Of a DNA stretch of 64,000 nt, positions 9,921-54,740 are shown piece after piece (position 1 is the stretch's first letter; the number at the start of each line of letters is the position of its first letter). Source of the DNA: a candidate division WWE3 bacterium (lineage in GTDB: Bacteria; Patescibacteriota; WWE3; UBA101185; UBA10185). Both the position numbers and the translations under genes were made by a program. The notes under the pieces are model-generated. The model had not been told where the DNA came from and ran no database searches. It was given only the letters and a program-made list of their open reading frames with translations. The stretch is from the NCBI GenBank assembly GCA_014729135.1, contig WJKK01000001.1, positions 593 to 64,592 of the forward strand, written 5' to 3'.

Positions 9921-9986
9921 AGGCACTCTCCTGTAAGAAAAAATTTGAACCGTACTCGGTGAGCTTTTTTCGTCAGGAGAGTGCCT
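9921..9986. repeat. REP-like palindromic element, copy 1
   Basis: 13-bp outer stem AGGCACTCTCCTG/CAGGAGAGTGCCT enclosing the conserved core TAAGAAAAAATTTGA...GAGCTTTTTTCGT. Copy 2 is at 13611-13676 and copy 3 at 54673-54740. Confidence 0.7.
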
Positions 9987-10062
9987 TTGAAAAAAAAGAT
10001 CTTGACCCCAAAGCAAGCCCGAGGGAATACTTTCGTCAGGATGACAGCGAAGGAATATCTCT

Positions 10063-11343
10063 TTAACCCTCTAAAAGCGTACGAATCCGTTCAATCTTCC
10101 CCATAACACGCTCAGCAACAACACCATTGTTATACATCCCCAACAAATGTTCAAAAACCGTCAACCCCTTCTTAACCATCCCAGGATCATACAAAACCTC
10201 GCCCGTCGGCAAACTCTCCTTTGAAGCCCACCAAAACTGATCGCTATTTAAACACTTCTGCATCAACACTTCCCGCGCAATCTTCCCCCGCAAAACAGGA
10301 TTGTCAATTCGCTTTAAACCTTCCGGATCCCACACAGGCAAAACAGCATACTCATCCATTTCTGAAAAGGCGTTATCTGTCGTATAAAGTGCTGACAATT
10401 CATTAACAATCTCCCATTGCAACTGATGAATCTCATTAGTGGGCGCATCCCACATTGGAAAAGGCACGCCTGAAGCCATATCCTCATCAGTAGCACCCCA
10501 ACTGGAGGTCTGCAAGCGCCGAATTGAAACGGTAGAAACACCTTCAATATGATCCGAAACCGTTACAATATCAATACCCTTCTTACGCACATAACTAATA
10601 ATCCTATTCAACAGCAAAAAACCTTGATCAAAATGGTGCCCAAAAAACTCCCCATCTAAAACTATGACAAACGATTCCTCTCTTGACTGATATTCATCAA
10701 TCAGTTGAGTAATTTCACCCATATCTAAATCACGTTTAAACGAGAGCACATTACTAAAAGCACGATTTCGAGCAATCATTTTAACGCCATAGTCCTTATA
10801 CCGATAAACTCCATGCTTCCCATACTTAACACGACTACCTCCAACAATATCCTCCTCCGGAATTGCCGTCTCATCCACAATCATCCATTTGTAACCCAAA
10901 TCATCCAGAGTTGCTAAAACATCCTCATTAACCGCTAGCTCAGGAGGAAAAAAGCCCACAATATTTTGCACCATAATTGCCGGGTCTCCCTCCAGATTTT
11001 GATGATCACCAAGGTAATAACCCAAGCCATACTCATTTAAAATAACCTCTTGTTGCACGAGTTTTTCAGATAACTTAGCCAAAATAGGATGATAAGCAGC
11101 GCTTCCAACTAACTCCACCTTCCCTACCCGCACCATGTCGCGAACATCGGAAATCCAGTCGCTATAGCCATAACGATCCATTTGTTCTAAAAGACTAAGA
11201 GGAATATCCAGGGAGACTTTGAAATTTTTGGTTCTACCAACCCGACGGATTAGAGGCTCATAAGATTCCTTGTACACACGGCGAAAAACCTCTTCCGATT
11301 GCGTCACAGGCTGATATAAGTGGAGCAGTATGGCTATTTCCAT
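10063..11343 (-). CDS. GH57-family enzyme, copy 2 (divergent paralog)
   Basis: 'MEIAILLHLYQP' aligns to the N-terminus of copy 1. 'DGEFFGHH' GH57 motif. Start placed at the ATG at 11343. The track ORF begins at a GTG at 11376. Confidence 0.75.
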   Translation of the reverse strand: MEIAILLHLYQPVTQSEEVFRRVYKESYEPLIRRVGRTKNFKVSLDIPLSLLEQMDRYGYSDWISDVRDMVRVGKVELVGSAAYHPILAKLSEKLVQQEVILNEYGLGYYLGDHQNLEGDPAIMVQNIVGFFPPELAVNEDVLATLDDLGYKWMIVDETAIPEEDIVGGSRVKYGKHGVYRYKDYGVKMIARNRAFSNVLSFKRDLDMGEITQLIDEYQSREESFVIVLDGEFFGHHFDQGFLLLNRIISYVRKKGIDIVTVSDHIEGVSTVSIRRLQTSSWGATDEDMASGVPFPMWDAPTNEIHQLQWEIVNELSALYTTDNAFSEMDEYAVLPVWDPEGLKRIDNPVLRGKIAREVLMQKCLNSDQFWWASKESLPTGEVLYDPGMVKKGLTVFEHLLGMYNNGVVAERVMGKIERIRTLLEG

Positions 11344-11497
11344 GAAGGAATTATAGAGGAGATATTGCAGTTTCACAACACACGAATAGGGGTATTAAGG
11401 AGGCCTTTTTGAAGGATGGCAGGCTTTTATTTATTCTGCTAATTGTTTAAGGAGTGTCTTGTTGAGGTGTTTTAGAAGGTATTTAAAGCACAAAAAA

Positions 11498-11580
11498 AGT
11501 TATACAGCCAAATCCGGGGAGGTAAAGCAGAGTCTCCTGCCCAAAGACTAAGCCACCTTCCCGGATTTCACCGTATAACT
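11498..11580. other. Long imperfect stem-loop (about 25-bp stem) in the GH57-2 upstream region
   Basis: AGTTATACAGCCAAATCCGGGGAGG ... CCTTCCCGGATTTCACCGTATAACT with an internal AGTCT...AGACT. Confidence 0.35.
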
Positions 11581-11722
11581 CTATGTTGTTAGTATAGCAA
11601 AATGTTATAGGCCTGTCAACCCGGGGGTGATTCGACCTAGAGTGGATCAAAGAGCTGCCCTGAACACAACTCCTTTTAACCTTTTCAGCTCATTGGAGGG
11701 ATTCTCCCACAAGAAAAAATTC

Positions 11723-11870
11723 TGCAGCGTAAAAGTTTACAAGACTTTTACGACTCATCGATAATCCGTCAACGACGGATTTCGATGTGGCTAACAAGTT
11801 GCCAAGCAACTTGTTAAATATTGTTTTTATCGAAAACACAATTGAAAATCTAAACGAAAGTGAGCGAAGC
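11723..11870 (-). promoter_or_regulatory. Roughly 150-bp three-hairpin element (copy B) between glgA copy 2 and GH57 copy 2
   Basis: Same three stems as copy A, with substitutions confined mostly to the loops: CGTAAAAGT/ACTTTTACG at 11728-11752, the second hairpin at 11757-11786, and AACAAGTTGC-caa-GCAACTTGTT at 11794-11815. Confidence 0.6.
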
Positions 11871-11908
11871 CTTTTTCGGTGGGAGAATCCCTCCAGAGAA
11901 TACAAAAG

Positions 11909-13453: not shown

Positions 13454-13610
13454 GTGAAGGGATTATAGCATATTGGTGTTTTGGTGGATGATTTCCCAGG
13501 TTTCCGCAAATCTGGAGTAGCAAAGGCGAAAGCAGAAAGCTACCTCCCGACGAAAAATTCTGTTCTTGCCCTTTCTCATCCGCGCCCTCACCTAAAGAGT
13601 TCTAGACCAA

Positions 13611-13676
13611 GGCAATCTCCTGTAAGAAAAAATTTGAGCCGTACTCGGTGAGCTTTTTTCGTCAGGAGAGTGCCTT
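13611..13676. repeat. REP-like palindromic element, copy 2
   Basis: Near-identical to copy 1 (AGGCAaTCTCCTG ... CAGGAGAGTGCCT). Located just downstream of the 13690 CDS stop. Confidence 0.7.
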
Positions 13677-13689
13677 GGAAACTAAATCG

Positions 13690-14598
13690 TTAGACTATTT
13701 CCTCAAGCTCATCAGCAAGACCCATCATCGCAAAATCCTGATTTAGCTGTGAGTCTGCAACTACGAAAAGACCATGCTTCTCCTGTTTGTCAGCAAAAAC
13801 TTCGGAGTCGTCGGTTAGCAAAAGACAAAGTTGGGCATTCTTTTCCGTGGTTTCCTCCAACTGAAGCATCTTGATGAAAAGATCTTCGGAGTCAGCCGGG
13901 ACATAGGTGTGCAAAACGGAAAACGGCTTTTTCAGGGGCTTCTCCAGGGATAAACCGGCATAAAGTGTGAAAGCATAATCAACTCCGGCCTTTCGCCCTA
14001 CTTTGTCAATGTTTTGCGCAACTTCTTTTAAACCGCCTAGCATGCTTTTATAGTATTTTATTGAAGTTTCTGAGGAGGCTTCTTCGCTGTCGTTAGAGGT
14101 TAAAGCGCTCAGTGTTTCTTTTTCCACGCCTTCATCCTCTTGTACGGAAACTGCCTGTTTTTCGGCTTTTTTGGAAGGGGCTGCCGGAGCTTTGAATTCT
14201 TCTGCAGCTGCTTTAAATTTGGAGAGCCAGTCGATTTCCTCTTCTTCTGAGGCTTCTTCTTCTGCTATTTCTTCTGTTTCCGCAGGAGTTTCTCCCTCCT
14301 CTTCAACATCTTCGGATTCCTCCACTTCCTCTTTTTGAGAAGGTGCTTTTGGTTGCTTCTTAGATGTTGTGGACTTTCTTCTCGAAGAATCTTGACTTGA
14401 CTCCCCTATGGAGTCCTCGTCACCATCAGGATATAAAAAGTTAAGAATGTCCTGCTTTGTAAAACGAAGTCTTCCTGTGGCAGTTTTTATCTCAGCCTCA
14501 AGCTTCCCTTGTTCCAAATAACGATATACGGAGCGTAGGCTAACGCCTAGCACGTCAGCTACTTCTGTTGAAGTATATAATTTTTCTTCTAAGTTCAT
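13690..14598 (-). CDS. HTH (excisionase/MerR-like) DNA-binding protein with an acidic linker and a C-terminal domain of unknown function
   Basis: N-terminus 'YTSTEVADVLGVSLRSVYRYLEQGKL' is an HTH_17-like helix-turn-helix. A long E/D-rich low-complexity stretch follows. Confidence 0.6.
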   Translation of the reverse strand: MNLEEKLYTSTEVADVLGVSLRSVYRYLEQGKLEAEIKTATGRLRFTKQDILNFLYPDGDEDSIGESSQDSSRRKSTTSKKQPKAPSQKEEVEESEDVEEEGETPAETEEIAEEEASEEEEIDWLSKFKAAAEEFKAPAAPSKKAEKQAVSVQEDEGVEKETLSALTSNDSEEASSETSIKYYKSMLGGLKEVAQNIDKVGRKAGVDYAFTLYAGLSLEKPLKKPFSVLHTYVPADSEDLFIKMLQLEETTEKNAQLCLLLTDDSEVFADKQEKHGLFVVADSQLNQDFAMMGLADELEEIV

Positions 14599-18784: not shown

Positions 18785-18848
18785 GGGACAGTCCTCTCCG
18801 AGGACAGTCCTTCGAGGGGACAGTCCTCTTAAAGGACTGTCCCCTTTT
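18785..18848. promoter_or_regulatory. Cluster of GGAC(A/T)GTCC palindromes, including a perfect 12-bp-stem hairpin plus TTTT, about 20 nt upstream of sortase copy 1
   Basis: GGGACAGTCCTC (18785), GAGGACAGTCC (18800), and GGGGACAGTCCT-cttaa-AGGACTGTCCCC (18816-18844) followed by TTTT. The same motif lies upstream of sortase copy 2 at 57095-57120. Confidence 0.55.
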
Positions 18849-18916: not shown

Positions 18917-21900
18917 ATGGGGTTGAATATGGTCGTCCAATGGGGTACTATAATTACAATGCCCGAAAACTTGCCCAATATATCTGAAAATTCATCCAAA
19001 AAAGCGACACCTGACAAAACAGGTCAACAACCCTTAAGCACCTCAGATGCAGCTAAAGAACTGGGCATCTCCCCTACTACACTAAAACGAATCCAGAAAA
19101 AATTTAAGCTGAATGTTCCACGCGATGAAAATAATTATCGTGTTTTTGATCAGGAGACTTTGGCAAGTTTTAGGGAGGCACTAGAAATTCACGAGGGAGG
19201 TGGCGCGGCGGCGGAAAAGAATGATTCCGGATCGGGGTCCAGAATGACAGTTTTTTCTCGTCATCCTGACGGAAGTCAAGATCCAGGATCCCGGATCAAG
19301 TCCGGGATGACAGATGGAAATAGGATGACAACACCTGGTCTCGAAATGACGAAATTTCGTCATTCTGAGCTTGACTCAAAATCTGCAGCGTCGATGAGAA
19401 GTGCAAGTCCTGCGGACATTGCACATCGGAATGACAGAAAGGGTGAAACAACCGAGGATCAGAAACTAACAGAAAACGCACAACTCTCCAAAGACCGCGC
19501 AAAACAAAGAGGAGCACTCACGCGAGAAAAAACACAACAAAAACTACTCAAAACCTTACCACTCCCCCTACTTGCAAGCACATTTGCCATGTTCTTTTTA
19601 TTCGGGCTTTTCACTCTTGGAGGCGCTTACTTCCAAAACGCCTCTAAAATAAAGGCAAAAACCCAAAATGTTAAGGCCCTGTTAGCCCACAACCTCAACG
19701 CGCCAATTCAAAATGCTTTTTCTCGCATAGAAAATGAGGTGTCAAATGATGTCAGCGGTTCTTCAATAGAGAATCTTGAAATGACAACAACGCATCATTC
19801 TGACGGAAGTCAAGATCCAGGATCCCGAGTCAAGCTCGGGATGACGGGGGGAAACGGAATGACTACGCTACTCTCCTCCCTAATCAAAAACAAAAAAGAC
19901 CAGCCCGGAGTACTAGCAACCGCCGTACTGGGCAGAAGAACAACTCGCCCCGACTTCGAACTCGACATCAACGTCCCCACAACAATCCGCGACAGCCTCA
20001 CCGTAGAAGGCACCATCTCAGCACGCACCTTCGCCACTCTCGCAGGAGGGCTCTCCACGGACAACCAAGACATAGATGCAGGCACCGGCACAATCACCGC
20101 GGGAACCATCACCGCAACCACAACAAACACCGGAACCCTCAACCTTACAGGACCGGCCACAATCAACAACCTCCTGACAATTGATGACGTCACTCAAACC
20201 ACCTTAGAAGAAGCGCTGGAACTCGCCGGAGACCTGGAAGGCACCTTAAACGCAGCCACCATCGTCACCCTCGGTGGAGCCGACGTTGGCGACATAGACT
20301 CAGGCGAACTTTTAATATTAGACGGCAACGAAATTACATCAGGTGAAATCACCGATTTAGACACAACAGCAATAACAGAACTGGGAACAATTTCAACCGG
20401 AACCTGGACAGCTACAGAAATAGGCCCGACTTATGGAGGCACAGGACTCACAACATACACAACAGGCGACCTCCTCTACTCCTCCGCTTCAAATACACTA
20501 GCCGCCCTCAACATAGGCACATCAGGACAAATGCTGACAGTTGCCGCAACAGGAATCCCACAGTGGCAGTCAGTTCAAGAAGCCGTTGGAGGCGCAGCAT
20601 TTTTACAAGAAGGAAACTCACTTGGAACCACAGCAATACTAGGAACCAATGACGCCTACAACCTAGTTTTTGAAACCAATAACACCGGTCACATGGCACT
20701 AACCTCCTCCGGAAAACTGGGCATTGGAACAACAGATCCCGGATCAGGGTCCGGGATGACAGTCATGGGAGGCAACGTTGGAATTGGCACAACCACCCCC
20801 ACTTCCCTACTCCACGTAGCAGGAGCCGCAGACATTGAAGGACAACTAACCGTAAACGAAGTCCTAATAACCCAAAACGGTATCGACAACTCAAGTGGAG
20901 GTATTACAAATGCCGGACCCATAACCGGAGCAACCGGCTTCACATCAAGTGGAACCATCACACTTAGCGACCTCTCCACAGGAGTGCTAAAATCCTCTGT
21001 TGGGGGCGTAATCTCATCCTCCGCCATAAACCTAGCCGACTCCGGAACCGACTACATCACAGGAACACTAACCCCAGCAAAAGGAGGAACAGGCCTAGCC
21101 TCCTACTCCATTGGCGACGTAATCTACGCATCCGCAGCAGACACACTAGCAGCTTTAGGCGCCGGCGGAGAAGGAGAAGTGCTAACAATAGACTCCGGAC
21201 TCCCCTCTTGGGGAAGCGTCACAGGCGACGGAGGCATCTGTACAAACTGCCTAGTAGACGATCCCGGAAGCACCCAAACCATAACCCCGACAAACGCAAC
21301 CGCCACCGGACTTTCTATAAAACAAGCCGACTCCGGAACCGCGGACGTCTTTAATGTACTGTCAAACGATGGCAATACTACTTTTTTTAAAATCGACAAC
21401 AGCGGAAACGTCGTTTTAGGCAACACCTCCTCCGCAGAATTTACCGTATCACCAACAAGCACCGATCCAATAGCTATTTCACCGGTTGCACAAGGCTCTA
21501 ACGCCTACACAGGAACCATCACCAGCTCCGACTTAACAGCAGCCAGAACATGGACTTTCCCCGACGCCACAGGAGCCGTTTGTCTTGCCACCGGAAACTG
21601 TAGTGGAGTCGGCGCCAACTTGGGAGGTGAAGGAGCACAATACTACATAACCCGCTGGTCAGGACAATACACACTTGAAAACTCAAACATTTGGGATGCC
21701 GGCTCAGGAGTTGGCATAGGCACAACAGACCCAAGCTATGATCTGGATGTAGCCGGAACTTTTAACACCTCAGGTGCAGCTACGTTAGGCAGCACTCTAG
21801 ATGTAACAGGAAACACGAGCCTAGCTGGAGAACTAGACGTCACCCAAGCAACAACACTAAACAGCACACTAGAAGTCACCAGCGCCACCACCCTCTCCTC

Positions 21901-24900
21901 CACCTTAGATGTCACCAGCAACGTAACCACCGGAGGACGTTTGGCAGTAAATGGCGCAAGTGATTCTTGGGTAGACGGCAATTTAGGCCTTGGCACAACC
22001 GACCCCACAAAGCAACTGCATGTTTCAGGTGGCGACGCCCTTTTTGAAGATGATGTTTATTTAGGCGATTCCACCGGTGTTTCAAAAGTTTTAAATGCTA
22101 ACGCAGGATCAACAGAGGGAGGCTTTAGCGTGCAAAATTCTACCACTAACCTTTTAGCCAACGGGTCCTTTGAATCGAGTACTTTTAGTGCAGGGTGGGA
22201 TATGGATGGGTTTGTGTTTGATCAGGATGAGGTTACGTTTACAACTGCCATGGCAAAAAGGACGGGCCAAGGGCCTTTTGCAGCAGCGCCTATTGTGCAA
22301 ACAAATTGGGAAGACGACACAACCAATGGGGATAGAATCAACTACAGCATTAGTGACACCCTGTACGAAGGGTTTTTTCCTGAATTTGATAGCGAACAAG
22401 GAACAATTGTTATGTGGGTAACCCCCGAATGGAACGGAACAAGTACAGAAACTCACACTTTTTTAAATGACCAGTATGACAGATTCAGATTGTACTTTGA
22501 CAATGGTAACCTATATTTTAAAGGGGCTGGAGGTGTTGGAAGCACGGGAGTATCTACAGACGTCTCAGATTGGACTGCAGGAAGCACTTACCTCATAACG
22601 GCTCGCTGGGACAGAACCAACGAGCTTGAGGGAGCAAACCACGCCTCTTTGACAGTAGAAAATGCAGCACCCACATTCGGCGAGGAAACTCCGGGCATAT
22701 GGAACGCTGGTAATATCTATATAGGAAATGATATATCCAGCACGCCTACCAATGCCATTATAGAGGGGCTTACCATCTACCGCCGACCATTATATGACGG
22801 AACCTATGGTATTGATGTCGGTAACGGCGATGAAATCGCTGCTATATACAACTCGGGCAGCGGAGAAGATCCTACCCTAACCACCGGTTCCTGGGATGTA
22901 GTCTTTGCCCTCCCCACCAACGCCTCCATCGGAGCACTTTCTACAGGCACAGGCGAGGCCTGGACCCATCCACATGCTTCTAACGTCCTTTACACCGATA
23001 CTGATAACACCGGGGGTTTTATGATGAACGGCACTTACACTTCAGACGGATGGTCCGATGAGGGCTCCCCTACTTCGGTAGCAGCACTTGCAACAGACGA
23101 AAAGATTTTTGCAGGAGGATACAAAACCGTAAGTGATGCAGCAAACGAAGGTATTAAATACAGTTTAAGCGGGCTTTCAGCAGGAGAAAACTATGTTGTT
23201 AGAGCACTTGCCCACTCCGATGGAACATCAATCCCCAAAATTCAAATTTGGGATGCTACTAATGGAGCCGAAATTACGCAAATGACAGCAGATGATGCAA
23301 CTTCAGACCGAGATACACCGGAGGTGTTTTTGTTTACGTTTGAGTTACCAACAGTTGCTAGAAATGGAGTTGCAAGTGATTGTACCTCTATAGAGGTGCG
23401 GCTTTTGAACACACAAGCAAGTGGGACGACTTACTGGCATCAAGTGGAACTACTAGAAAACTATATTGATAACCCTTCACTTGAAACAGGTTCGGGCGAT
23501 CCGTGGATCCCGGATGGGTGGAGCAACTCCGGTTTAGATACAACGGAAAGCGCTGCGGAAACAGGCACTTACCACACAGGATCAAACGCCATTAGCTTAA
23601 ATCCCGATGCGGGAAATGAAGGCACTACCACTAATGATATTGGTCCTTTAGCTGCTAACGCATACATTGCAGTAGGAGGCTGGTCAATTTCTACAAATTT
23701 AAACCCAAAACTAATGGGGGGAATAGGTATTGAAGAGCAAGATGGCTCTCCCGAAGATTATGCAGGACCTTATTTGAGCGGAGATACAACCTGGGAAACA
23801 GAAGCCAGAGTCCTTCGCGCTGACTTCTCAAGGCCTACAAGTGAGTTCACGCTAAGAGACCCAGCGGCAGTGAACGCATATAGTGGTATCTTTGATGATA
23901 TCTATGCGTATGATCTAACCGATGTCTCTCTCACAGTCACCCCCGCCTCAGAAGCCAACTCCACAGAAAGTACGGGACTTAGAGTAGATGGAAGGGATAC
24001 GGCTACACAAACCATAAGTAATATTACAGCAACAGAAGGAAGAATACGGTTTAAATGGACACCTAGACATTCAGCGGGGAACGCTAATACATATCAAGGA
24101 GGAGATAGGACCACTATCGCTTACTTTTTCTATGACTACTCAAACTATATCATTGTGCGATGGTGGTCGGACAGTACAATAAGATTAAGTATAAAAGACC
24201 CAAATAATCTCGACGGAAACAGTTGGGATGCAACAGGAAGCATAAGTGCGGGCACAACTTACGATATGGAAATCATTTATAATGAGAACAGAGCAGCGCT
24301 AAATATAGATGGCAATGAAACTAGTGTTATTGAGGAAGGAACCAATTTTGACAACACACCAGATGAAGCCTACTGGGCAAGCTGGAGTGACGGAAGATTT
24401 AATGGCGACGCCACATTCGCCTCCCCCGACCCCTCCACCACAGCAGAAACAGCCAGCGCCAACACCTACCTCGGCAAAAAAGCAGCCGAAATAAACGCCT
24501 CCGGAAACTACTCCGCAGAACTAACCCAAAGTGTTGACCCCAACTCCACAAGCACTCACACCCTATCCGCCTACATAAAAATGAGCGACGCAAGCGAAGT
24601 CACCTCCTCAAAAGTAAAACTCATCTGGGAGGGAAGCCTAGTAACTCCCGATTCTTACACCCAAGTAGGCTCAACCGGATGGTACCGATTGTCATACTCT
24701 GCAGCCACAACCGATGCCTCCAACGACTACGGAGTCTACGTGGAAAACGGCTACACGGCTTATGCAGATGGCGTTCAACTGGAGGCTAGCGCCTTTGCCA
24801 CCAACTTTGCCGACAATAATTTGGCGCGGGTTGCAGGAGCCAGCATTGCGGATAACGATTTAATTGGCCGTACTTTGGGGGTTTATGGCCAAAGCACTTT

Positions 24901-27900
24901 CTTTGGAGATTTGATTCCGGGTTACAGCGACGTTTATGATTTGGGGTCTAGCAGTTATAAGTGGAATAATTTGTATTTAGCTGGTGATATTAATTTGTCA
25001 GGGGAGCTGTTGTTAGCGGATGGAACTGCCGCCCTTCCTTCGTTGGCTTTTTCTAGTGATGCCAATACGGGGCTGTACCGTTTGGGAGATGATCAGCTTG
25101 GATTTAGTACGGGAGGGTCTAGTAGGGTTGTGATTGATGAGAGTGGATATGTGGGGATTGGGACGACGGATCCATCCTCTGCACTGAAAATTGAGAATGG
25201 AAACATTGAAATAGGGGGTGATTATAACCCAGGGTTAAAAATATATTCCTGGGAAACCACCCACGGAACAGGTAGTTACGCGCAGTTAGAGAAAACGTCT
25301 CTTACAGTAAGCTCAAGATTCTCTTATGGGGATTTTTCAGTAAAATCGAGAGACAACAGCTTAGATCAAACTAAAACATCCTTGAAAATCCTGGGAGATT
25401 CTGGAAATGTTGGTATTGGAAATAGTGACCCCGAAGAAGCTCTTCATATCCAGAATCCCGCAGGAGCCTACATCAAACTCCAAACAGCTGAAAGTATAGA
25501 TTCCGACTCAGAAGGTTTGATATTTTCACACTATAACCATTCCGGTAATTCTTGGGAGGAAGCCAGCGTATTTTACGATTGGTGGGGTAGAACAGGATTG
25601 AACTACAAATCTAACGGCAGGGACGGTGATCACGCCGACCACAGGTTTTTGGATAATGAGAATAACGTACATATGCTCATAACAGATGCGGGACTTGTTG
25701 GAGTGGGAACCACCGCCCCCGCCTCCACCCTCGACGTGGCCGGTACCGCCTGGCTCCGTGGTGACACGGGTGATAACGGGCTTTTTGTTGAAGCTGGAGG
25801 GAATGTAGGCATCGGAACCACAGACCCAAGCGAAGAGTTAGAAATTAAAGGAAACGGAAGCGCTGATTTAATTTTAAAAAGAAATAATGATGTAACAGGA
25901 GAACAAGGAAATCTCATATTCCAAACTTTCAATGGTACAGAAATGGCAAAAATAACAGGCAACCGCGTGGGCGGAGATGGAGAGCTTAATTTCCATACAG
26001 ATGGAGCCCTAACGATGGTTTTAGACAGATACGGAAGAATTCAGAGCGGCCAAAATATCGACGGCACCCCCAGTAGCTGGCTCGAAATCTACAGACATTC
26101 CCCATCAGCAAATGAGTCTTTGCTCAAGCTTGCAACAGGAAGCAATGATAATTTGTTTAACATTGATAGCGAAGGTGATGCATATATTTCTAATACATTA
26201 GGTATCGGCACCACCTCCCCCACCTCCACCCTCGATGTTGCAGGTACCGCCTGGCTCCGCGGTGACACGGGTGATAACGGGCTTTTTGTTGAAGCAGGAG
26301 GAAATGTAGGTATCGGCACCACCAATCCGGAAAGCCTTTTACACATCGAATCCGGAACAGAAGAGGCATTCAAAATTAAGAATGCGGGTTCTGACCCCGT
26401 TATAAGTTTAGGAAACAGTGGGGGGAACGGCTTAATTAAAGGAGGCCTAAATAACAGTCTATTTATTAGATCTCTAGGAAACTCAAACTCCGAGGGTATA
26501 TCTTTCCAGAATGACACTAGTGATGGAGGGTCACCCACCACTCTGATGCATTTAAATAGACTGGGATACTTAGGTATAGGAACTACTGCTCCTAGTGGAC
26601 AACTCCACTCCACCGGCACTGTTTTCTTTGCGGGGGTTTATGATGATGATTTAAATGGAGGTACTTATAGAGACTTGCTGGTACAAGACGATGGTCAGTT
26701 AGGCTACGACTCCTCCTCTATTCGCTACAAAACTAATGTAATTGACATGGAGGATACCTCATGGATTTATGATTTGCGACCGGTTAACTATGAATACAAA
26801 CAGAAAGATGAAAATGGGAATTATTTAGAAACCGGTACGGGAGTTATGAAGTATGGGCTTATTGCTGAAGAGGTTGAACAGGTTAATGATAGCTTTGTGT
26901 TCTATAACGTGTTGGATGACGGATCTAAACAAGTGGAAGGTGTGCAATATAGAGAACTAGTCACTCCAATTATCCAAGCCGTTCAAGATCAAAAAATAAC
27001 GTTAGATGAGCATGGAATAATCCTTAAAGATCTTGGAGCTGTGGATGAAACCAGCCCTACCCTTTTAGAAATGGAAGACAACATAGCCTCTTTGCAAGCA
27101 GGGCTTGAAACCACAAACACAGAAATCGCAGACATGAGGATGATCCTCGATGAAATCAGCACTTCAGTCCTTGAGAGCAGTGAATCTTTTGGACTGGAAG
27201 AAGGATCATCCTTAACAGAAAGTGGGGTTTTAGAGTCAACAGAAAGCACAAGTAGCACTTCGAACAAGGATGATCCTTCATTAGTTTTGATGGAAATCGA
27301 ATCCGTTTATGATGAGTTTAAAGAATTTGTGGCAGCACTTGGCCTTTCCGTAAACACAGAAACCGAAACTCTAATAGCAGAAAGCAACTTTACAGTAATT
27401 GGACAAACAACCCTGGCTGATACAACAATCACAGGAGATTTGGCGGTAGGATTGCTGACAATCGACTCCATGGAAAACTCTATTGGAATTACAGGGCCCT
27501 CCTGCTATTCAGAAATAACAGGCGAAACAAATGAAGCACTTTGCAAAACGGGAACTCTATATTTACAAAAGAACCTGGCAGGTAATTTGGATATATTCAA
27601 TGGCAAAATCGTCCTCTCCCCTGATGGTAATTTAGAGGTTGCAGGAGCAGTAGCAGCTTCGGCTATAAGGGTAGATGAAAATGGAGGTACTATAGGATCG
27701 GGCATGCTAGAGGCAGGGGAAACTTCTCTAATAGTTGCAAGTGCAGAGATCACTAGTAAGTCCAAAATTTTCGTAACCCCAACAAATTCAACAGTCGGCC
27801 AAACACTATGGATAGGAGAAAAAACCGAGGGGGAAAGTTTTGAAGTTAAAATAGACTCTCCGGTAGATTCTGACATAACCTTTGACTGGTGGATTATAAA

Positions 27901-27904
27901 TTAG
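18917..27904 (+). CDS. Giant (2995 aa) membrane-anchored surface protein: N-terminal HTH, transmembrane helix, tail-fibre-like GIGTTDP repeats, lectin-like region, S74-type intramolecular chaperone/autoproteolysis domain, C-terminal coiled-coil and beta domain
   Basis: Single ORF. aa 40-90 'LSTSDAAKELGISPTTLKRIQKKF...NYRVFDQETLASFREA' is HTH_17-like. Transmembrane helix 'LPLPLLASTFAMFFLFGLFTLGGAYF' at about aa 215-240. Repeated '(L/V)GIGTTxPxxxL(H/D)V(A/S)G' tail-fibre motifs. 'YDSSSIRYKTNVIDMED...YGLIAEEVEQV' at about aa 2595 matches the SDxRxK...GLIAQEVE core of peptidase S74 / endosialidase C-terminal chaperone domains. Confidence 0.85.
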   Translation: MGLNMVVQWGTIITMPENLPNISENSSKKATPDKTGQQPLSTSDAAKELGISPTTLKRIQKKFKLNVPRDENNYRVFDQETLASFREALEIHEGGGAAAEKNDSGSGSRMTVFSRHPDGSQDPGSRIKSGMTDGNRMTTPGLEMTKFRHSELDSKSAASMRSASPADIAHRNDRKGETTEDQKLTENAQLSKDRAKQRGALTREKTQQKLLKTLPLPLLASTFAMFFLFGLFTLGGAYFQNASKIKAKTQNVKALLAHNLNAPIQNAFSRIENEVSNDVSGSSIENLEMTTTHHSDGSQDPGSRVKLGMTGGNGMTTLLSSLIKNKKDQPGVLATAVLGRRTTRPDFELDINVPTTIRDSLTVEGTISARTFATLAGGLSTDNQDIDAGTGTITAGTITATTTNTGTLNLTGPATINNLLTIDDVTQTTLEEALELAGDLEGTLNAATIVTLGGADVGDIDSGELLILDGNEITSGEITDLDTTAITELGTISTGTWTATEIGPTYGGTGLTTYTTGDLLYSSASNTLAALNIGTSGQMLTVAATGIPQWQSVQEAVGGAAFLQEGNSLGTTAILGTNDAYNLVFETNNTGHMALTSSGKLGIGTTDPGSGSGMTVMGGNVGIGTTTPTSLLHVAGAADIEGQLTVNEVLITQNGIDNSSGGITNAGPITGATGFTSSGTITLSDLSTGVLKSSVGGVISSSAINLADSGTDYITGTLTPAKGGTGLASYSIGDVIYASAADTLAALGAGGEGEVLTIDSGLPSWGSVTGDGGICTNCLVDDPGSTQTITPTNATATGLSIKQADSGTADVFNVLSNDGNTTFFKIDNSGNVVLGNTSSAEFTVSPTSTDPIAISPVAQGSNAYTGTITSSDLTAARTWTFPDATGAVCLATGNCSGVGANLGGEGAQYYITRWSGQYTLENSNIWDAGSGVGIGTTDPSYDLDVAGTFNTSGAATLGSTLDVTGNTSLAGELDVTQATTLNSTLEVTSATTLSSTLDVTSNVTTGGRLAVNGASDSWVDGNLGLGTTDPTKQLHVSGGDALFEDDVYLGDSTGVSKVLNANAGSTEGGFSVQNSTTNLLANGSFESSTFSAGWDMDGFVFDQDEVTFTTAMAKRTGQGPFAAAPIVQTNWEDDTTNGDRINYSISDTLYEGFFPEFDSEQGTIVMWVTPEWNGTSTETHTFLNDQYDRFRLYFDNGNLYFKGAGGVGSTGVSTDVSDWTAGSTYLITARWDRTNELEGANHASLTVENAAPTFGEETPGIWNAGNIYIGNDISSTPTNAIIEGLTIYRRPLYDGTYGIDVGNGDEIAAIYNSGSGEDPTLTTGSWDVVFALPTNASIGALSTGTGEAWTHPHASNVLYTDTDNTGGFMMNGTYTSDGWSDEGSPTSVAALATDEKIFAGGYKTVSDAANEGIKYSLSGLSAGENYVVRALAHSDGTSIPKIQIWDATNGAEITQMTADDATSDRDTPEVFLFTFELPTVARNGVASDCTSIEVRLLNTQASGTTYWHQVELLENYIDNPSLETGSGDPWIPDGWSNSGLDTTESAAETGTYHTGSNAISLNPDAGNEGTTTNDIGPLAANAYIAVGGWSISTNLNPKLMGGIGIEEQDGSPEDYAGPYLSGDTTWETEARVLRADFSRPTSEFTLRDPAAVNAYSGIFDDIYAYDLTDVSLTVTPASEANSTESTGLRVDGRDTATQTISNITATEGRIRFKWTPRHSAGNANTYQGGDRTTIAYFFYDYSNYIIVRWWSDSTIRLSIKDPNNLDGNSWDATGSISAGTTYDMEIIYNENRAALNIDGNETSVIEEGTNFDNTPDEAYWASWSDGRFNGDATFASPDPSTTAETASANTYLGKKAAEINASGNYSAELTQSVDPNSTSTHTLSAYIKMSDASEVTSSKVKLIWEGSLVTPDSYTQVGSTGWYRLSYSAATTDASNDYGVYVENGYTAYADGVQLEASAFATNFADNNLARVAGASIADNDLIGRTLGVYGQSTFFGDLIPGYSDVYDLGSSSYKWNNLYLAGDINLSGELLLADGTAALPSLAFSSDANTGLYRLGDDQLGFSTGGSSRVVIDESGYVGIGTTDPSSALKIENGNIEIGGDYNPGLKIYSWETTHGTGSYAQLEKTSLTVSSRFSYGDFSVKSRDNSLDQTKTSLKILGDSGNVGIGNSDPEEALHIQNPAGAYIKLQTAESIDSDSEGLIFSHYNHSGNSWEEASVFYDWWGRTGLNYKSNGRDGDHADHRFLDNENNVHMLITDAGLVGVGTTAPASTLDVAGTAWLRGDTGDNGLFVEAGGNVGIGTTDPSEELEIKGNGSADLILKRNNDVTGEQGNLIFQTFNGTEMAKITGNRVGGDGELNFHTDGALTMVLDRYGRIQSGQNIDGTPSSWLEIYRHSPSANESLLKLATGSNDNLFNIDSEGDAYISNTLGIGTTSPTSTLDVAGTAWLRGDTGDNGLFVEAGGNVGIGTTNPESLLHIESGTEEAFKIKNAGSDPVISLGNSGGNGLIKGGLNNSLFIRSLGNSNSEGISFQNDTSDGGSPTTLMHLNRLGYLGIGTTAPSGQLHSTGTVFFAGVYDDDLNGGTYRDLLVQDDGQLGYDSSSIRYKTNVIDMEDTSWIYDLRPVNYEYKQKDENGNYLETGTGVMKYGLIAEEVEQVNDSFVFYNVLDDGSKQVEGVQYRELVTPIIQAVQDQKITLDEHGIILKDLGAVDETSPTLLEMEDNIASLQAGLETTNTEIADMRMILDEISTSVLESSESFGLEEGSSLTESGVLESTESTSSTSNKDDPSLVLMEIESVYDEFKEFVAALGLSVNTETETLIAESNFTVIGQTTLADTTITGDLAVGLLTIDSMENSIGITGPSCYSEITGETNEALCKTGTLYLQKNLAGNLDIFNGKIVLSPDGNLEVAGAVAASAIRVDENGGTIGSGMLEAGETSLIVASAEITSKSKIFVTPTNSTVGQTLWIGEKTEGESFEVKIDSPVDSDITFDWWIIN
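19259..19313. repeat. 55-bp palindromic element inserted in-frame in the giant gene (copy 1); a related 24-bp unit lies at 19227-19250
   Basis: GTCATCC...GATCCAGGATC...CCCGGA-tcaag-TCCGGG...GGATGAC. Encodes 'HPDGSQDPGSRIKSGMTDG'. Confidence 0.6.
19793..19847. repeat. 55-bp palindromic element inserted in-frame in the giant gene (copy 2); a further short relative lies at 20735-20763
   Basis: About 87% identical to copy 1. The internal stem is CCCGAG-tcaag-CTCGGG, a compensatory change relative to CCCGGA/TCCGGG. Confidence 0.6.
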
Positions 27905-28881: not shown

Positions 28882-28969
28882 TCACAAGTTGAGTACAACT
28901 TGTGAGGCAACAAACAAATGTTCGCACTCACTCGCATTTGCTTGGCCCAGAAACATTCGCGAAGCGAAT
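28882..28969. repeat. tRNA-trailer repeat element (copy near tRNA-Ser)
   Basis: TCACAAGTTG-agtac-AACTTGTGA hairpin plus 'GGCAACAAACAAATGTTCGCACTCACTCGCATTTGCTTG' and an ATTCGC-gaa-GCGAAT hairpin. This is the reverse complement of 44596-44661 downstream of tRNA-Ala. Confidence 0.65.
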
Positions 28970-36406: not shown

Positions 36407-36703
36407 TTATTCCTTCAAAGCCTCCTCGATAAGTGACCGAAAAGCAGGATATTCACTGATTGACTTTACCAAAGAAACAAAACGGCGTTCGTTCAAGCGG
36501 TAAAACACCTGACGCCCTTTCTTCTTGTTCTTCAAGAAGCCAAGATCAGCTAAAACCCGCAAGTGGTGAGAAGCCAAGTTCTCCTCCACCCTAAGATTTT
36601 CAGCTACCTGAGAAACGTTCTTCTGTCCGTCACTCAAGAACTTCAAAATTTTTAATCGGTTATTATCCGAAAAAGCCTTTGAGACTTTTGTTAATTTAAC
36701 CAT
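36407..36703 (-). CDS. ArsR/SmtB-family transcriptional regulator
   Basis: 'NRLKILKFLSDGQKNVSQVAENLRVEENLASHHLRVLADLGFL' is a winged-HTH ArsR signature. Confidence 0.8.
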   Translation of the reverse strand: MVKLTKVSKAFSDNNRLKILKFLSDGQKNVSQVAENLRVEENLASHHLRVLADLGFLKNKKKGRQVFYRLNERRFVSLVKSISEYPAFRSLIEEALKE

Positions 36704-36762
36704 GCACCAATACTACAACATAAATTATACAAAGTCCAATCAATATTCGTTGGAATACTCAA

Positions 36763-38442
36763 TTACTTTTTATTCCTGTACTGTAGGGCTTCTGCTACAT
36801 GCGTCTCCTTAATTTTTTGCGAATCCGACAAATCTGCAATAGTTCGCGCCACTTTTAAAACCTTGAAATAAGATCTTGCAGAAAGATTAAAAGTATTTCC
36901 TGCCCTTTGGAGGAGTCTCTCTGCTTGCAAATCCGGCTTACAAAACTTTTTAATATGCTTGTTTTTCATTTCGGCGTTTAAATATATGGACGCCTTTTTT
37001 AGGCGTTCTCCCTGGATTTTGCGGGCACTCACTACTCTTTTGCGTATTTCGTTGGAAGTTTCTATATTTCCTGCAACAGTTTCTTTTGTAGCACCTGCAA
37101 AATCAAGAGAATCCGGACTACACACTCTGCCAATAGCTGCTGTCTTAACTTTGGAGTCTGCAGCCTCTCCCGCAAAACGAAGCTTTTCAGTATCAACGGG
37201 ACGAACACGACAAAATAAATCAATGCGATCCAGAATTGGACCCGACAACTTCTTCTTATAACGCCGGATTTGCCCGGGAGAGCAAGTGCAAGTTTGATTC
37301 GAGCCAAAAAACCCACAAGGACAGGGATTTCCTGCAGCAATTAAAATGAACCTGCAAGGAAACGTGAAACTCCCTAAACTGCGCGATATTGTCACCTTCC
37401 CCTCCTCCAAAGGTTGGCGAAGCATCTCTAAAATTGACCGCGGAAACTCAGGAAACTCATCCATAAAAAGCACGCCCCTATGCGCCAAACTAATCACGCC
37501 CGGCTGCGGAACACTCCCCCCACCAACCATGCCTGCATAAGAAATCGTATGATGAGGCGCTTTAAAAGGCCTTTTGCGAATTAAAGAGCCTCCCGGAGGA
37601 ATGGATCCAACAGCCGAATAGATCTTTGTAACTTCAAGAGATTCATTGTTTGTCAGTGGAGGTAAAATTGACCGAAAAGCCTTGGCTAGAAGGGTCTTTC
37701 CTGCTCCGGGAGGGCCAATCATTAGAAAGTTATGCCCACCTGCAGCTGAAATTTCTAGGGCTCTTTTTATCTTTGCTTGTCCTACAATGTCAGTCATGTC
37801 ATATTCAAATTTTGTTGCTTTTGTTGGAGGGTTTTGGTCTGTCTTGGGATTGTGAATGTACTTGGTAGTGGAATCTTGGGAATCCCCTTCCCCACTGGAA
37901 GAACAGGAAACTGAGAGAGGCCTTTTAACCGAGCCTCCCTTTAAAATTTCAAAAAGATCTACTAAATTTTCTATAGAAAAAACCTCCAAGCCAGGCACTG
38001 CAGAAACCTCGCGGACATTGGATTTAGGCACAAAAACCTTTTTATAACCCTTCTCCTTGGCAAAAAGCGCTAAAAGGAAGGCTCCCTTGGAGTGACGCAA
38101 ACTACCATCAAGTGACAACTCTCCAAAGAAAAGCGCCTTCTTAGGAATTTCCAGACCATGAATAAGCGCCAAAAGCCCTACAGCAATGGGCAAATCGTAA
38201 AAAGACCCGTGTTTAGGCACGTCAGCGGGAGCTAAATTCACTGTTATTCTTTTCTTGGAAGGAAAATCTAAGTCCAAATTCACCAAAGCCGTTTTTATGC
38301 GATGTCTACTTTCAGTAGTGGCCTTATTGGGAAGCCCCACAATATCAAACGAAGGCAAACCCCTACTTGCAATATCAACTTCCACTGTAATGCCTAAACT
38401 TTTCAGGCCAACAGGAGCAACTGAATCGACTTTAACTAACAT
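36763..38442 (-). CDS. comM: YifB/ComM-family Mg-chelatase-like AAA+ ATPase
   Basis: Lon-like N-terminal domain, Walker A 'GPPGAGKT', C-terminal ChlI-like region. Confidence 0.85.
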   Translation of the reverse strand: MLVKVDSVAPVGLKSLGITVEVDIASRGLPSFDIVGLPNKATTESRHRIKTALVNLDLDFPSKKRITVNLAPADVPKHGSFYDLPIAVGLLALIHGLEIPKKALFFGELSLDGSLRHSKGAFLLALFAKEKGYKKVFVPKSNVREVSAVPGLEVFSIENLVDLFEILKGGSVKRPLSVSCSSSGEGDSQDSTTKYIHNPKTDQNPPTKATKFEYDMTDIVGQAKIKRALEISAAGGHNFLMIGPPGAGKTLLAKAFRSILPPLTNNESLEVTKIYSAVGSIPPGGSLIRKRPFKAPHHTISYAGMVGGGSVPQPGVISLAHRGVLFMDEFPEFPRSILEMLRQPLEEGKVTISRSLGSFTFPCRFILIAAGNPCPCGFFGSNQTCTCSPGQIRRYKKKLSGPILDRIDLFCRVRPVDTEKLRFAGEAADSKVKTAAIGRVCSPDSLDFAGATKETVAGNIETSNEIRKRVVSARKIQGERLKKASIYLNAEMKNKHIKKFCKPDLQAERLLQRAGNTFNLSARSYFKVLKVARTIADLSDSQKIKETHVAEALQYRNKK

Positions 38443-39364
38443 AATAACGATCTCCTTCTTCTTTAATTAGGCCACGCAAAACCAAGGATGTAAGTGAGGA
38501 ATTTAAGCTGCTTATTGAAACCTGTTTGCCGGCTGCAACTAAAGCTTGGTTTAATTCATCGGCTGTTTGGGCGTTTGCTTTTAAACAAGATAGTATTTGC
38601 TTTTCTAAGGGGTCTAAATTGGGCAAACTGTCAAACAGATTTGCTGATGCACCGGATTTATTTTCCGGCAAACAAACTCCCGTATCCAGACCGACTTTTC
38701 CTCCCGCTTCCTCACCACGTTTTTCATAAAAAACCCTAATATCAAAAGGAGAACCAACTGCTCTAGCACCTTCCCGTAATAACTGACAAATGCCTTGAAA
38801 ATTATCAGAAAACACGTTTCCCGGAGCCACAAAAACTTGCCGCTTGTTCTTTTTAGCATAACCAGCCGTAATTAAAGTACCACTCCCCTTGCCGGCCTCC
38901 ACAACAAAAACAGCCTGAGATAACCCTGCCACAATGCGATTTCTTTTAGGAAAAGTCCATTTTTGAGCATGAGTATCCCCGGGATATTCCGAAACCACAA
39001 GACCACCCGAATCCAAAATTTCACGATGCAACTCCTTTTGAAAGCCCGGACAAACTCGATTAATTCCACAGGCCATAACTGCAATTGTCCTTCCTCCTGC
39101 TGATAAAGCTGCCCTATGCGCCTCCGCATCTACACCATACATAAAACCGGAAACAATAGTTATTCCTCTAGCTGCAAGGTCATAGACAAACTTTTGAGTA
39201 ACTCTTTTTCCATAAGGAGTCATTTTCCTGCTCCCTACTACAGCCAAACACGCCTTAAAAATTGCAGGATTGTACTCACCTCTTATATACAATTTCTCCG
39301 GGGGATCTCTTATTTCCCCAAGTAATGAAGGGTATTTCTTGGAATTTAAACTGATTACGTCCAT
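38432..39364 (-). CDS. dprA: DNA-processing protein DprA (Smf)
   Basis: 'AVVGSRKMTPYGKRVTQKFVYDLAARGITIVSGFMYGVDAEAHRAALSAGGRTIAVMACGI' is the DprA Rossmann core. Confidence 0.85.
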   Translation of the reverse strand: MDVISLNSKKYPSLLGEIRDPPEKLYIRGEYNPAIFKACLAVVGSRKMTPYGKRVTQKFVYDLAARGITIVSGFMYGVDAEAHRAALSAGGRTIAVMACGINRVCPGFQKELHREILDSGGLVVSEYPGDTHAQKWTFPKRNRIVAGLSQAVFVVEAGKGSGTLITAGYAKKNKRQVFVAPGNVFSDNFQGICQLLREGARAVGSPFDIRVFYEKRGEEAGGKVGLDTGVCLPENKSGASANLFDSLPNLDPLEKQILSCLKANAQTADELNQALVAAGKQVSISSLNSSLTSLVLRGLIKEEGDRYYVS

Positions 39365-44480: not shown

Positions 44481-44661
44481 TTAAAGTGCCTTTGGCACTT
44501 TAATGCGCTTGTCAAAATGCAAAGCATTTTGACATGCCTGCAAAGTCTCGCCGAAGGCGAACTTTGCATATTTATTCCGCTCCGCGGAACTTTTTGGCTC
44601 AAGCAAATGTGAGCGAATGCGAACATTTGTTTGTTGCCTCACAAGTCCGAAGGACTTGTGA
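44481..44661. repeat. Hairpin-dense tRNA-Ala trailer: three perfect hairpins plus the tRNA-trailer repeat element (copy 2)
   Basis: TTAAAGTGCC/GGCACTTTAA (44481-44503), GTCAAAATGC/GCATTTTGAC (44511-44533), GCAAAGT..ACTTTGC (44540-44567), then 44596-44661 'CAAGCAAATGTGAGCGAATGCGAACATTTGTTTGTTGCCTCACAAGTCC-gaa-GGACTTGTGA', homologous to 28882-28946 in inverse orientation. Confidence 0.65.
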
Positions 44662-53230: not shown

Positions 53231-53322
53231 ATTATACCATGTAGTGTGAACTTACGTGGGATACGGCAAGAAAAGAGCATTTGGATGACATCGAATTTTT
53301 ATCTAACACGACAGCGCACAAA

Positions 53323-54552
53323 CTAGCGCATGTAATTCAACGGATTCTGCGCAACACCGCCATACTTAACCATAAAGTGAACATGCGGACCTGTAGAACG
53401 CCCCGTATTCCCCAGTAAACCAATCATCTGACCACGACTTACACTTTCGCCATAACCCACATCCAGGCGGCTCATATGCCCATAAACCGTTTCGTAGCCA
53501 TTACCATGGTCAATTCTAATATGCAGACCAAGGCCCCAAGGATCCCAACCGGAGCGTGTCACCACTCCCCCCGTACAAGCAAACAAAGGAGGCATTGCCG
53601 TACCTGCAGGGCTGGCGATATCTATTCCATTGTGATACCACGTAAAATACTGCGTAATAATGCGCACAGAAGTTGGCCAAACACAATAAGTAGAGCTTGG
53701 AGTTGGCGCTGGCGTAGGCGTTGTGGTTCCCGGAACTGTCCCCGGAATGGAGGGGGTTACAGGCACAACCGGAGTCGGTACAGAAGCTCCGGGGATGACT
53801 AGCTCTGTGCCTAAAGCCAAAGATGACGTGTCCAAAATGTAGTTGAAATCAGCAACAGCCTGCGGAGGAACGTCATACTTTTGCGCAATTGAGCTTAAAG
53901 TGTCGCCGGATTCTACTGTGTGAATTAAGCCGGAAACAGGTGGAATTGTGATTTCATCCCCTACTGAAAGGATAGAGTTGTCGGTTAAGTTGTTGACGTA
54001 TTTTAAAGCGTCTACTGAAATTTTAAATCGGTTACCTATGGAGGAAAGTGTATCACCTCCTTGAACCGTGTAAGCAAAGGATTCTGCACGTTTTCGGCTG
54101 TCGGGAACTGTAGTTAAAGCGGTGTTTTTTCTGGGAATTATGTCGGTTGTTGAGGCCAAATAGTCGGGGTTTAGCTCTTGGCTGCTGACAAATCTGGTGC
54201 TGTTGAATACTTCGCCAAATGTGAAAACTATGAAAGCTGCTGACATGACAAAGAATGTTGCAATGGGGCGGCCTAGACGTCCTCGAGACCAGATTAGTTT
54301 GGCGGTTAAAAACTCCTTGGAAAGGTTGACTAAACGGATGGATCCGGTGAAAAGACTGAAAAATGCTTTTATCAGCTGATGCATTTTAGCGACAATATAG
54401 GTTCCGCAGGCTTTCGTAAAGAGCTTAAGGGCGTTTAGCATTTTATTAAACTGGTTAGTTCCTTCAGGTGAAAAGCCCTCAAATCTAAGCTGAAAGTAGT
54501 TGGGAGAGTTTGAGGAATCCCTTAAGGAAGCGTTTTTCCTGTAAAAAGGCAT
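53323..54552 (-). CDS. LysM (x2) plus M23-family metallopeptidase
   Basis: 'YTVQGGDTLSSIG...', 'HTVESGDTLSSIAQKY' LysM repeats. 'HNGIDIA', 'YGHMS' and 'GNTGRSTGPHVHF' are M23 zinc-ligand motifs. Confidence 0.8.
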   Translation of the reverse strand: MPFYRKNASLRDSSNSPNYFQLRFEGFSPEGTNQFNKMLNALKLFTKACGTYIVAKMHQLIKAFFSLFTGSIRLVNLSKEFLTAKLIWSRGRLGRPIATFFVMSAAFIVFTFGEVFNSTRFVSSQELNPDYLASTTDIIPRKNTALTTVPDSRKRAESFAYTVQGGDTLSSIGNRFKISVDALKYVNNLTDNSILSVGDEITIPPVSGLIHTVESGDTLSSIAQKYDVPPQAVADFNYILDTSSLALGTELVIPGASVPTPVVPVTPSIPGTVPGTTTPTPAPTPSSTYCVWPTSVRIITQYFTWYHNGIDIASPAGTAMPPLFACTGGVVTRSGWDPWGLGLHIRIDHGNGYETVYGHMSRLDVGYGESVSRGQMIGLLGNTGRSTGPHVHFMVKYGGVAQNPLNYMR

Positions 54553-54672
54553 ATGTTGCAGTAAAGTTCTGCAAGACTCATTTTACCATGCCCCCTCCCA
54601 CATCTCATCCAAAGTTTTTGAAAGCGGTTTCAGAAACGGCGGGGTTAATACGTGCTTTTCCTCAAAGCACGC

Positions 54673-54740
54673 GGCACACGTCGTTAAGAAAAAATTTGAG
54701 CACTGCGAAGCAGTGCGAGCTTTTTTCGTACGACGTGTGC
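54673..54740. repeat. REP-like palindromic element, copy 3 (diverged outer stem, conserved core)
   Basis: GGCACACGTCGT-TAAGAAAAAATTTGAGC-[GCACTGC gaa GCAGTGC]-GAGCTTTTTTCGT-ACGACGTGTGCC, immediately downstream of the rho stop. Confidence 0.7.

Follow-up and report, generated by a model that had tools for sequence, protein, structure and literature searches.

A small family of dispersed palindromic intergenic repeats, possibly REPIN-like, in an uncultured WWE3 bacterium

The stretch of DNA analyzed here (the window) is 64 kb of contig WJKK01000001.1 from an uncultured bacterium of candidate division WWE3 (Patescibacteria), and it carries three copies and one diverged copy of a palindromic repeat of about 70 nt, which we call copies 1–4; coordinates are positions in the window unless a related contig is named. 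Copies 1, 2, and 4 lie in the junctions of a duplicated cluster of GH57 and glycogen-synthase genes beside an HTH_17 gene (Pfam annotation), and copy 3 lies between rho and a LysM/M23 peptidase gene. Copy 1 is found 73 nt past the stop of a 437-aa GH57 gene (10063–11376, minus strand), and the start of a 540-aa GH57 gene follows 261 nt later; copy 2 is 11 nt past the stop of the HTH_17 gene (13690–14598, minus strand), and copy 3 is 27 nt past the rho stop codon. All four copies are intergenic, lying from a stop codon to the next gene (copy 4 overlaps the stop), in a window with an intergenic share of 14.6%.

In each of the junctions that hold copies 1–3, no strong hairpin other than the repeat stands between the stop codon and the next gene's promoter-like site. 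The LysM/M23 peptidase gene is preceded by an extended −10 promoter-like TGGTAAAAT (54580–54588, minus strand), which is kept in six related contigs (TGGTAGAAT in contig L007); copy 3 thus sits between the rho stop and the next promoter. Similarly, copy 2 lies upstream of a promoter-like TGCTATAAT (13462–13470, minus strand), situated 8 nt before the ATG of a 514-aa glycogen-synthase-like gene, whose transcript looks leaderless; the related contig L013 has an equivalent TGGTATAAT. The original prediction, made from the letters of this DNA, held that the repeat always stands downstream of minus-strand genes. Copies 1–3 do follow such genes, but the rule carries little weight, because the minus strand holds 38 of the window's 48 genes. 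Copy 4 is oppositely oriented.

Copy 1 occupies 9917–9990, where a 17-bp outer stem (9917–9933/9974–9990) encloses a left core, TAAGAAAAAATTTGAAC (9934–9950), an apical hairpin (9951–9960), and a right core, GAGCTTTTTTCGT (9961–9973). The outer stem of copy 2 (13607–13678) pairs 13607–13622 with 13663–13678, with one A/G mismatch, around a left core at 13623–13639, an apical hairpin at 13640–13649, and a right core at 13650–13662. In copy 3 (54673–54741), the outer stem is formed by GGCACACGTCGT (54673–54684) and ACGACGTGTGCC (54730–54741), the cores are at 54685–54701 and 54717–54729, and the apical hairpin GCACTGC-GAA-GCAGTGC lies within 54700–54716. All three are read on the plus strand, in the same orientation, and pairing extends further out in copies 1 and 2 than in copy 3. 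These positions agree within a few bases with the three sites that had been proposed: the earlier 9921–9986 was the central part of copy 1, and the earlier end of copy 3 was one base short. The outer inverted repeat of copy 3, said to be different yet perfectly complementary, does pair fully (GGCACACGTCGT with ACGACGTGTGCC), as do the two arms of its inner hairpin (GCACTGC/GCAGTGC), which had been described as perfect.

The three copies follow one plan. The 5′ half reads GGCAC (GGCAA in copy 2), seven variable bases, and TAAG-AAAAAA-TTTGA(G/A)C, followed by a short variable hairpin; the 3′ half reads GAGC-TTTTTT-CGT, the complement of the seven variable bases, and GTGCC. The strings TAAGAAAAAATTTGA(G/A)C and GAGCTTTTTTCGT and the stem base GGCAC/GTGCC are identical in copies 1–3, with the C-to-A change in copy 2 as the sole exception. 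In the alignment of these copies about 40 positions are invariant, whereas the stems are almost wholly replaced. Pattern searches of the window found the two core strings together at the three sites only, and a descriptor requiring an outer stem of at least 9 bp around an A-run and a T-run, each of at least 5, matched the same three sites and no other in the window. Copies 1 and 2 share 95.9% identity over exactly 73 bp, at the ends of which homology stops sharply and the flanks are unrelated. The idea of a discrete, dispersed, structured intergenic repeat is upheld by these sharp boundaries and unrelated flanks.

The predicted RNA folds of copies 1–3 are three-tier hairpins; on either strand they reach −33 to −43 kcal/mol (z-scores from −6.6 to −9.7), and the outer stem contributes most of this stability. 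Across the alignment of the three there are 26 pairs, with 98.6% of cells paired and seven pairs changed on both sides; five of these seven double-sided changes belong to the variable 7-bp segment of the outer stem. The observed pairing and covariation values were reached by 2 of 500 shuffles, and shifting the 3′ partners by 1–3 columns lowered pairing to 42–55%. As copies 1 and 2 are near-duplicates, the covariation rests on two independent lineages only. The compensatory changes are in keeping with the earlier view that covariation argues for structural selection, but they do not demand it. Template-switch correction of quasi-palindromes would yield the same pattern of paired changes. Nor is selection on RNA required: in REPINs (hairpin-forming doublets of repetitive extragenic palindromic, or REP, sequences), the spacers vary in sequence while always retaining a hairpin (PMC3337134).

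A covariance model, R1, was built from copies 1–3, which score 100.8, 98, and 79.3 bits, respectively, and was run over the window without filters. It picked out a probable diverged copy, copy 4, at 7947–8035 on the minus strand (30.7 bits, E ~4e-6; 23.5 bits on the plus strand), which is opposite in orientation to copies 1–3. Its minus strand reads AAAGGAAGGTGTCCAC-AAGAAAAGCGAAC...GTGAGCGAAGCCTTTTTTCG-GTGGACACCTTCCTTTTTT, and between the arms of its outer stem stands AAGAAAAG... followed by GTGAGCGAAGCCTTTTTTCG, which corresponds to the right core of copy 1 with a 6-nt GAAGCC insertion. Copy 4 has a predicted fold of −40.6 kcal/mol. It overlaps the stop codon (8033–8035) of the 540-aa GH57 gene, and its 16-bp outer stem followed by U6 on the sense strand has the canonical shape of a terminator for that gene. 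In addition, a 23-nt plus-strand fragment, GTGAGCGAAGCCTTTTTCGGTGG (11860–11882), is almost the same as GTGAGCGAAGCCTTTTTTCGGTGG, the 3′ half of copy 4, and probably represents a remnant of the repeat.

Outside the window, the exact core was absent from a set of one genome per GTDB species, from JGI metagenomes, and from IMG/VR, where the few matches, all lacking outer stems, are put down to chance; phage and plasmid records had no BLAST match. Rfam 15 had no match at the three sites at gathering or permissive thresholds, and the best sub-threshold matches were to hairpins of a generic kind (miRNA precursors; RAGATH-21 with 23 bits, threshold 70; lactis-plasmid with 25 bits, threshold 70). We also examined related WWE3 contigs, whose Rho is 76–86% identical to that of the window. 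At the orthologous rho/M23 junction the repeat is missing in all seven of them. Six of these relatives keep an intergenic gap and the promoter, and in L008 the genes overlap and leave no gap. The 51-bp gap of L134 holds the promoter only, and the junction of L010, the closest relative, has a different hairpin, built around two TGAGCGAA motifs. Model R1 returned generic hairpins and no member from ~86 kb of related WWE3 contigs, and the stem/A-run/T-run descriptor had no match in ~61 kb of related contigs. Because the core is absent from the collections and the element is absent from the matching junctions of relatives, sequence comparison indicates that the repeat is a recent lineage-specific insertion, not a conserved regulatory RNA.

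Tentatively, and with a probability of roughly 0.45, we interpret the repeat as a small lineage-specific family of dispersed REPIN-like intergenic repeats that would serve as a hairpin in 3′ untranslated regions (3′ UTRs), acting as a 3′-end barrier or insulator. REPINs have inverted conserved units and a non-conserved spacer that always keeps a hairpin, and their A and T runs have been read as terminator co-option (PMC3337134). In the repeat described here, the variable apical hairpin stands between a left unit that reads A-A-GAAAAAA... and a right unit whose reverse complement reads A-C-GAAAAAA.... These two conserved units (A[A/C]GAAAAAA plus TTTGAGC or GCTC) are imperfectly inverted and flank a non-conserved, hairpin-forming spacer; the outer stem encloses them, its base GGCAC/GTGCC conserved and its middle 7 bp varying while staying complementary. 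Duplication or transposition would have carried the copies into intergenic DNA, in one orientation or the other. When the upstream gene is transcribed, the repeat would become part of its 3′ UTR and fold into the three-tier hairpin. This hairpin would act mainly as a 3′-end structure that blocks 3′-to-5′ exonucleases after termination, and it would also insulate neighboring, separately promoted genes. In copy 3, the inner A6/U6 module may bring about weak intrinsic termination; in copy 4, the outer stem is the likely site of canonical termination. We infer mobility, transcription through the repeat, and a role at 3′ ends; as it stands, this is a modest, lineage-restricted repeat that does not look like a novel type of regulator and whose function is deduced from position and fold only.

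Several observations weigh against the REPIN-like interpretation. According to Pfam annotation, the window encodes no RAYT (REP-associated tyrosine transposase, Y1_Tnp) or other transposase, and no reverse transcriptase, integrase, or Nop-domain protein. Four copies in all were available for study, two of which (1 and 2) are near-duplicates; 3–4 copies were seen within 64 kb, and the figure for REP/REPIN families, tens to hundreds in intergenic DNA, is per genome. REP units are short imperfect palindromes whose conserved head resembles GTAG in enterobacteria and Pseudomonas, whereas the units here, TAAGAAAAAATTTGAGC and GAGCTTTTTTCGT, are non-palindromic and have no GTAG head. Part of the outer stem varies too, which is a further difference from REPINs. 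A RAYT-like gene is present in the syntenic relative L013 (190-aa Y1_Tnp, L013:10054–10626, minus strand; NF047646 at 40 bits, below the cut-off of 80), and RAYT-type transposition machinery therefore occurs in the lineage; that gene, however, is flanked by the palindrome GGACWGTCC and not by the repeat of copies 1–4. Because the RAYT-like gene of L013 is tied to GGACWGTCC, and because palindromes of the REP-unit type are lacking here, membership of the REP/RAYT class is unproven. Finally, the ~40 invariant positions beside replaced stems suggest a sequence-specific constraint beyond simple selfish spread.

The palindrome next to the L013 gene is a feature in its own right. GGACWGTCC, 9 bp long, recurs in intergenic DNA as doublets and quadruplets, at 18786–18842 and 57096–57120 in the window and in 12 copies within 11.5 kb of L013; at 57096–57120 it forms a terminator-like hairpin with a T-run. 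Together with the Y1_Tnp gene of L013, it has the look of a true REP-RAYT system of WWE3 bacteria.

The A-run, hairpin, and T-run had been taken for a bidirectional intrinsic terminator packaged inside a larger stem, in which the A6/apical hairpin/U6 core would stop polymerase arriving from either side and would be conserved as the functional terminator, with the outer stem as packaging. We consider this unlikely. The layout is indeed symmetrical and stands between genes, directly after stop codons and before the next promoters, the three junctions of copies 1–3 hold no other terminator-like hairpin, and copy 4 presents its outer stem and then U6. Against an intrinsic terminator defined as a G+C-rich stem of at least 5 pairs with a U-rich tract 0–2 nt after it, however, copies 1–3 fail: a consensus scan left copies 1 and 2 unflagged and flagged the apical hairpin of copy 3 marginally, on both strands, and the outer stem of copy 4 with its U6 alone has the defined form. 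The apical stem of copies 1 and 2 has only 4 pairs, the U-run begins 4–6 nt after a stem of 4–7 bp, and the inner A6/hairpin/U6 module on its own is predicted at −6.6 to −9.1 kcal/mol in copies 1 and 2 and at −15.5 kcal/mol in copy 3. The outer stem, which supplies most of the energy, forms only once polymerase is past the U-run, and in copies 1–3 it has no U-tail. The ordinary terminators of the window are different, with G+C-rich stems that abut T-runs (6257–6278, 36319–36349, 57096–57120, and near 58300). Moreover, terminators do not need conserved loop sequences, and relatives do without any hairpin at the rho/M23 junction. The weak inner module, the gap before the U-run, the outer stem without a U-tail, and the contrast with canonical terminators of the window therefore leave the packaged terminator only partly supported.

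Alternatively, the repeat could be a multi-copy structured RNA motif on the TAAG strand, whose invariant, asymmetric internal loops, UAA/GU and UUUGA/GAGC, perhaps with tandem G-A pairs beside the apical stem, would dock a specific protein or RNase. With about 40 positions invariant and the stems almost completely exchanged, there is room for such a sequence-specific partner; GA...GA flanks the apical stem in copies 1–3 and GCGA...GAGC in copy 4, and at the foot of the apical stem the succession A-U, G-U, G-C is possible on the TAAG strand only. That strand also folds at least as well as its complement in copy 1 (−42.4 against −40.5 kcal/mol), copy 2 (−37.3 against −33.0), copy 3 (−43.0 against −42.8), and copy 4 (−40.6 against −33.7). 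It is antisense to both neighboring genes in copies 1–3, however, an upstream promoter-like site on it was not found for copies 2 and 3, and the lack of an Rfam match and of homologues in the other genomes searched would be unusual for a functional RNA family, which makes this account improbable. To a related proposal, in which the invariant loops and the A6:U6 helix form a platform for a dedicated RNA-binding protein or RNase that defines or processes mRNA 3′ ends in this ultra-small genome, making the repeat a protein-dependent 3′-end module rather than a plain terminator or a selfish repeat, we assign an equally low chance. A signal at the level of DNA, recognized in double- or single-stranded form, such as a cruciform or protein-binding, recombination, or DNA-uptake site (for instance, a substrate of a Y1/HUH enzyme or a site for a nucleoid protein), is very improbable in our judgment. 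The palindromic symmetry does reach the extreme ends of the repeat without a target-site duplication, the A6T3 and T6 tracts would bend DNA, the apical GCGAAGC of copy 3 is a classic DNA mini-hairpin of very high stability, ComEA, ComEC, ComM, and DprA are encoded in the genome, and the core-related TGAGCGAA occurs six times in the window, always in intergenic DNA. Yet the density is far under that of known uptake sequences, the window has no recombinase or HUH gene, and the conserved parts are not the paired parts, unlike in most protein-bound inverted repeats. Equally slim is the prospect that the copies are non-functional leftovers of local duplication and gene conversion in a rearranging region, with stems kept by template-switch repair of quasi-palindromes. 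The 8-kb duplicated GH57/glycogen-synthase cluster does contain copies 1, 2, and 4 and the fragment, together with a 150-bp intergenic duplication (9731–9879 and 11717–11864, 90.7% identity), but copy 3 is in an unrelated junction 41 kb away, the core remains asymmetric, with no "correction" to symmetry, and the cores are identical while the stems have been replaced.

Should the REPIN-like family turn out to be abundant across the 864-kb genome, it would be among the first dispersed palindromic repeat families described in a Candidate Phyla Radiation bacterium. Genomes of this radiation are tiny and expected to shed repeats, and our literature search found no paper that names REPINs or RAYTs together with Patescibacteria. 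The family could also mark how gene 3′ ends form in organisms not yet grown alone.

Other features of the window were recorded alongside the repeat. The 150-bp duplication lies upstream of both GH57 genes and has, on its plus strand, a promoter-like TTTACA-17/18-GATAAT, then the palindrome TAACAAGTTGC-NNN-GCAACTTGTTA, and then a T-rich tail; in L007 (3494–3560), a palindrome that resembles it, AACAAGTTGC, forms a terminator-like hairpin. Between a glycogen-synthase-like gene and a GH57 gene, a hairpin of ~90 nt and −50 kcal/mol (11490–11586, minus strand) is kept in L013 (6692–6770) and L012 (2216–2295), where the GH57 proteins are only 62–68% identical. Its apical AGUCUUUGGGCAGGAGACU is invariant, 5 of its 35 predicted pairs have compensatory changes, and it is not in Rfam; we regard it as a candidate conserved 5′-UTR RNA of the GH57 gene. 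The six intergenic copies of the 8-mer TGAGCGAA include sites at 36224–36291, 7976–7983 (minus strand), 11861, and 44610, and in L010 (1975–2040) two copies of the motif flank the hairpin of the rho/M23 junction. Three copies lie in the loop of a single −40.7 kcal/mol hairpin between arsR and comEA. The 8-mer may stand for a larger group of motifs that are akin to the GAGC boxes of the repeat; a scan of viral contigs for paired TGAGCGAA motifs gave more than 120 matches, mostly chance. A 74-bp segment of stacked short hairpins occurs at 28898–28970 and, inverted, at 44573–44646 (85% identity), just downstream of tRNA-Ser and tRNA-Ala, and the tRNA-Ala trailer (44481–44660) has about six consecutive hairpins, several with C-GAA-G triloops.

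A competence gene cluster occupies 33014–39364 on the minus strand. It encodes an apparently split ComEC (beta-lactamase-fold part, 33014–33913; Competence-domain part, 34001–35161), ComEA (35244–35999), an ArsR-type regulator (36407–36703), ComM/YifB (36763–38442), and DprA (38432–39364). The 407-bp gap between comEA and arsR has a perfect DnaA-box-like TGTGGATAA at 36135–36143 and, at 36040–36215, GTGGAT and ATGGAT repeats and a repeated ATTTCC(C/T)GCA motif. To judge by these motifs the gap may be a replication-origin-like region; no dnaA gene was found in the window by Pfam annotation. On the plus strand, a 2995-aa open reading frame (18917–27904) contains internal DNA repeats (19261–19311 with 19795–19845, and 25706–25821 with 26207–26322), each ~90% identical.

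Finally, we compared the repeat with known systems. With bidirectional intrinsic terminators it shares the A-run/hairpin/T-run between genes and the canonical outer stem and U6 of copy 4; it differs in the short hairpin set back from the U-run, in the strong outer stem that lacks a U-tail in copies 1–3, and in its conserved loops. Like miniature inverted-repeat transposable elements (MITEs such as Correia, ERIC, and RUP), the repeat is dispersed, short, and non-coding, lies near gene ends, has inverted ends, and can fold as RNA. MITEs, however, have conserved, transposase-bound terminal repeats, whereas here only the 5 bp of the stem base are conserved and the adjacent 7 bp differ, none of the copies is flanked by a direct repeat, and no related insertion sequence is known. 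Of the original label, a REP/MITE-like dispersed element, the MITE part fails. A k-turn has a canonical stem, a 3-nt bulge closed by a Watson-Crick pair, and then tandem sheared G-A/A-G pairs. The TAAG strand, which reads A6-UUU-GA[stem]GA-GC-U6, is k-turn-like in having tandem G-A pairs and a 3-nt stretch, with UUU opposite GC; because the strand opposite the bulge carries the extra GC, the closing pair would be A-G, and without the Watson-Crick pair we rejected a canonical k-turn. Integron attC sites have conserved R″/R′ boxes (RYYYAAC/GTTRRRY) at the stem base and a variable center. Here, the base is GGCAC/GTGCC without those boxes, and the center, not the base, is the most conserved part. 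A sigma-54 promoter was dismissed for want of TTGC at the right spacing from GGCAC, a sigma-70 promoter inside the repeat for want of credible hexamers, a small open reading frame across the repeat because it is not conserved between copies, and a DNA uptake sequence because the density is too low.

TIGR stem-loop arrays, which belong to RNA-guided systems of Nop-domain Tas proteins, have been reported from phages and parasitic bacteria including the Candidate Phyla Radiation; their units stand in tandem beside a Tas gene, and their loops have variable 8–12 nt dual spacers (PMC12045711). The repeat resembles them in that variable yet consistently palindromic stems enclose loops with short conserved motifs, but its copies are dispersed rather than tandem, its loops are invariant, and no Nop-domain gene is present in the window, and we rejected a TIGR-Tas array. 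REPINs are the model that we favor. Like them, the repeat is a hairpin unit of ~70–90 nt made of two conserved inverted units; its spacer has no sequence conservation and always keeps a hairpin, the apical hairpin of copies 1 and 2 differing from that of copy 3; it is strictly intergenic, occurs in both orientations, and has no target-site duplication; and A and T runs stand at its units, as they do in REPINs (PMC3337134).

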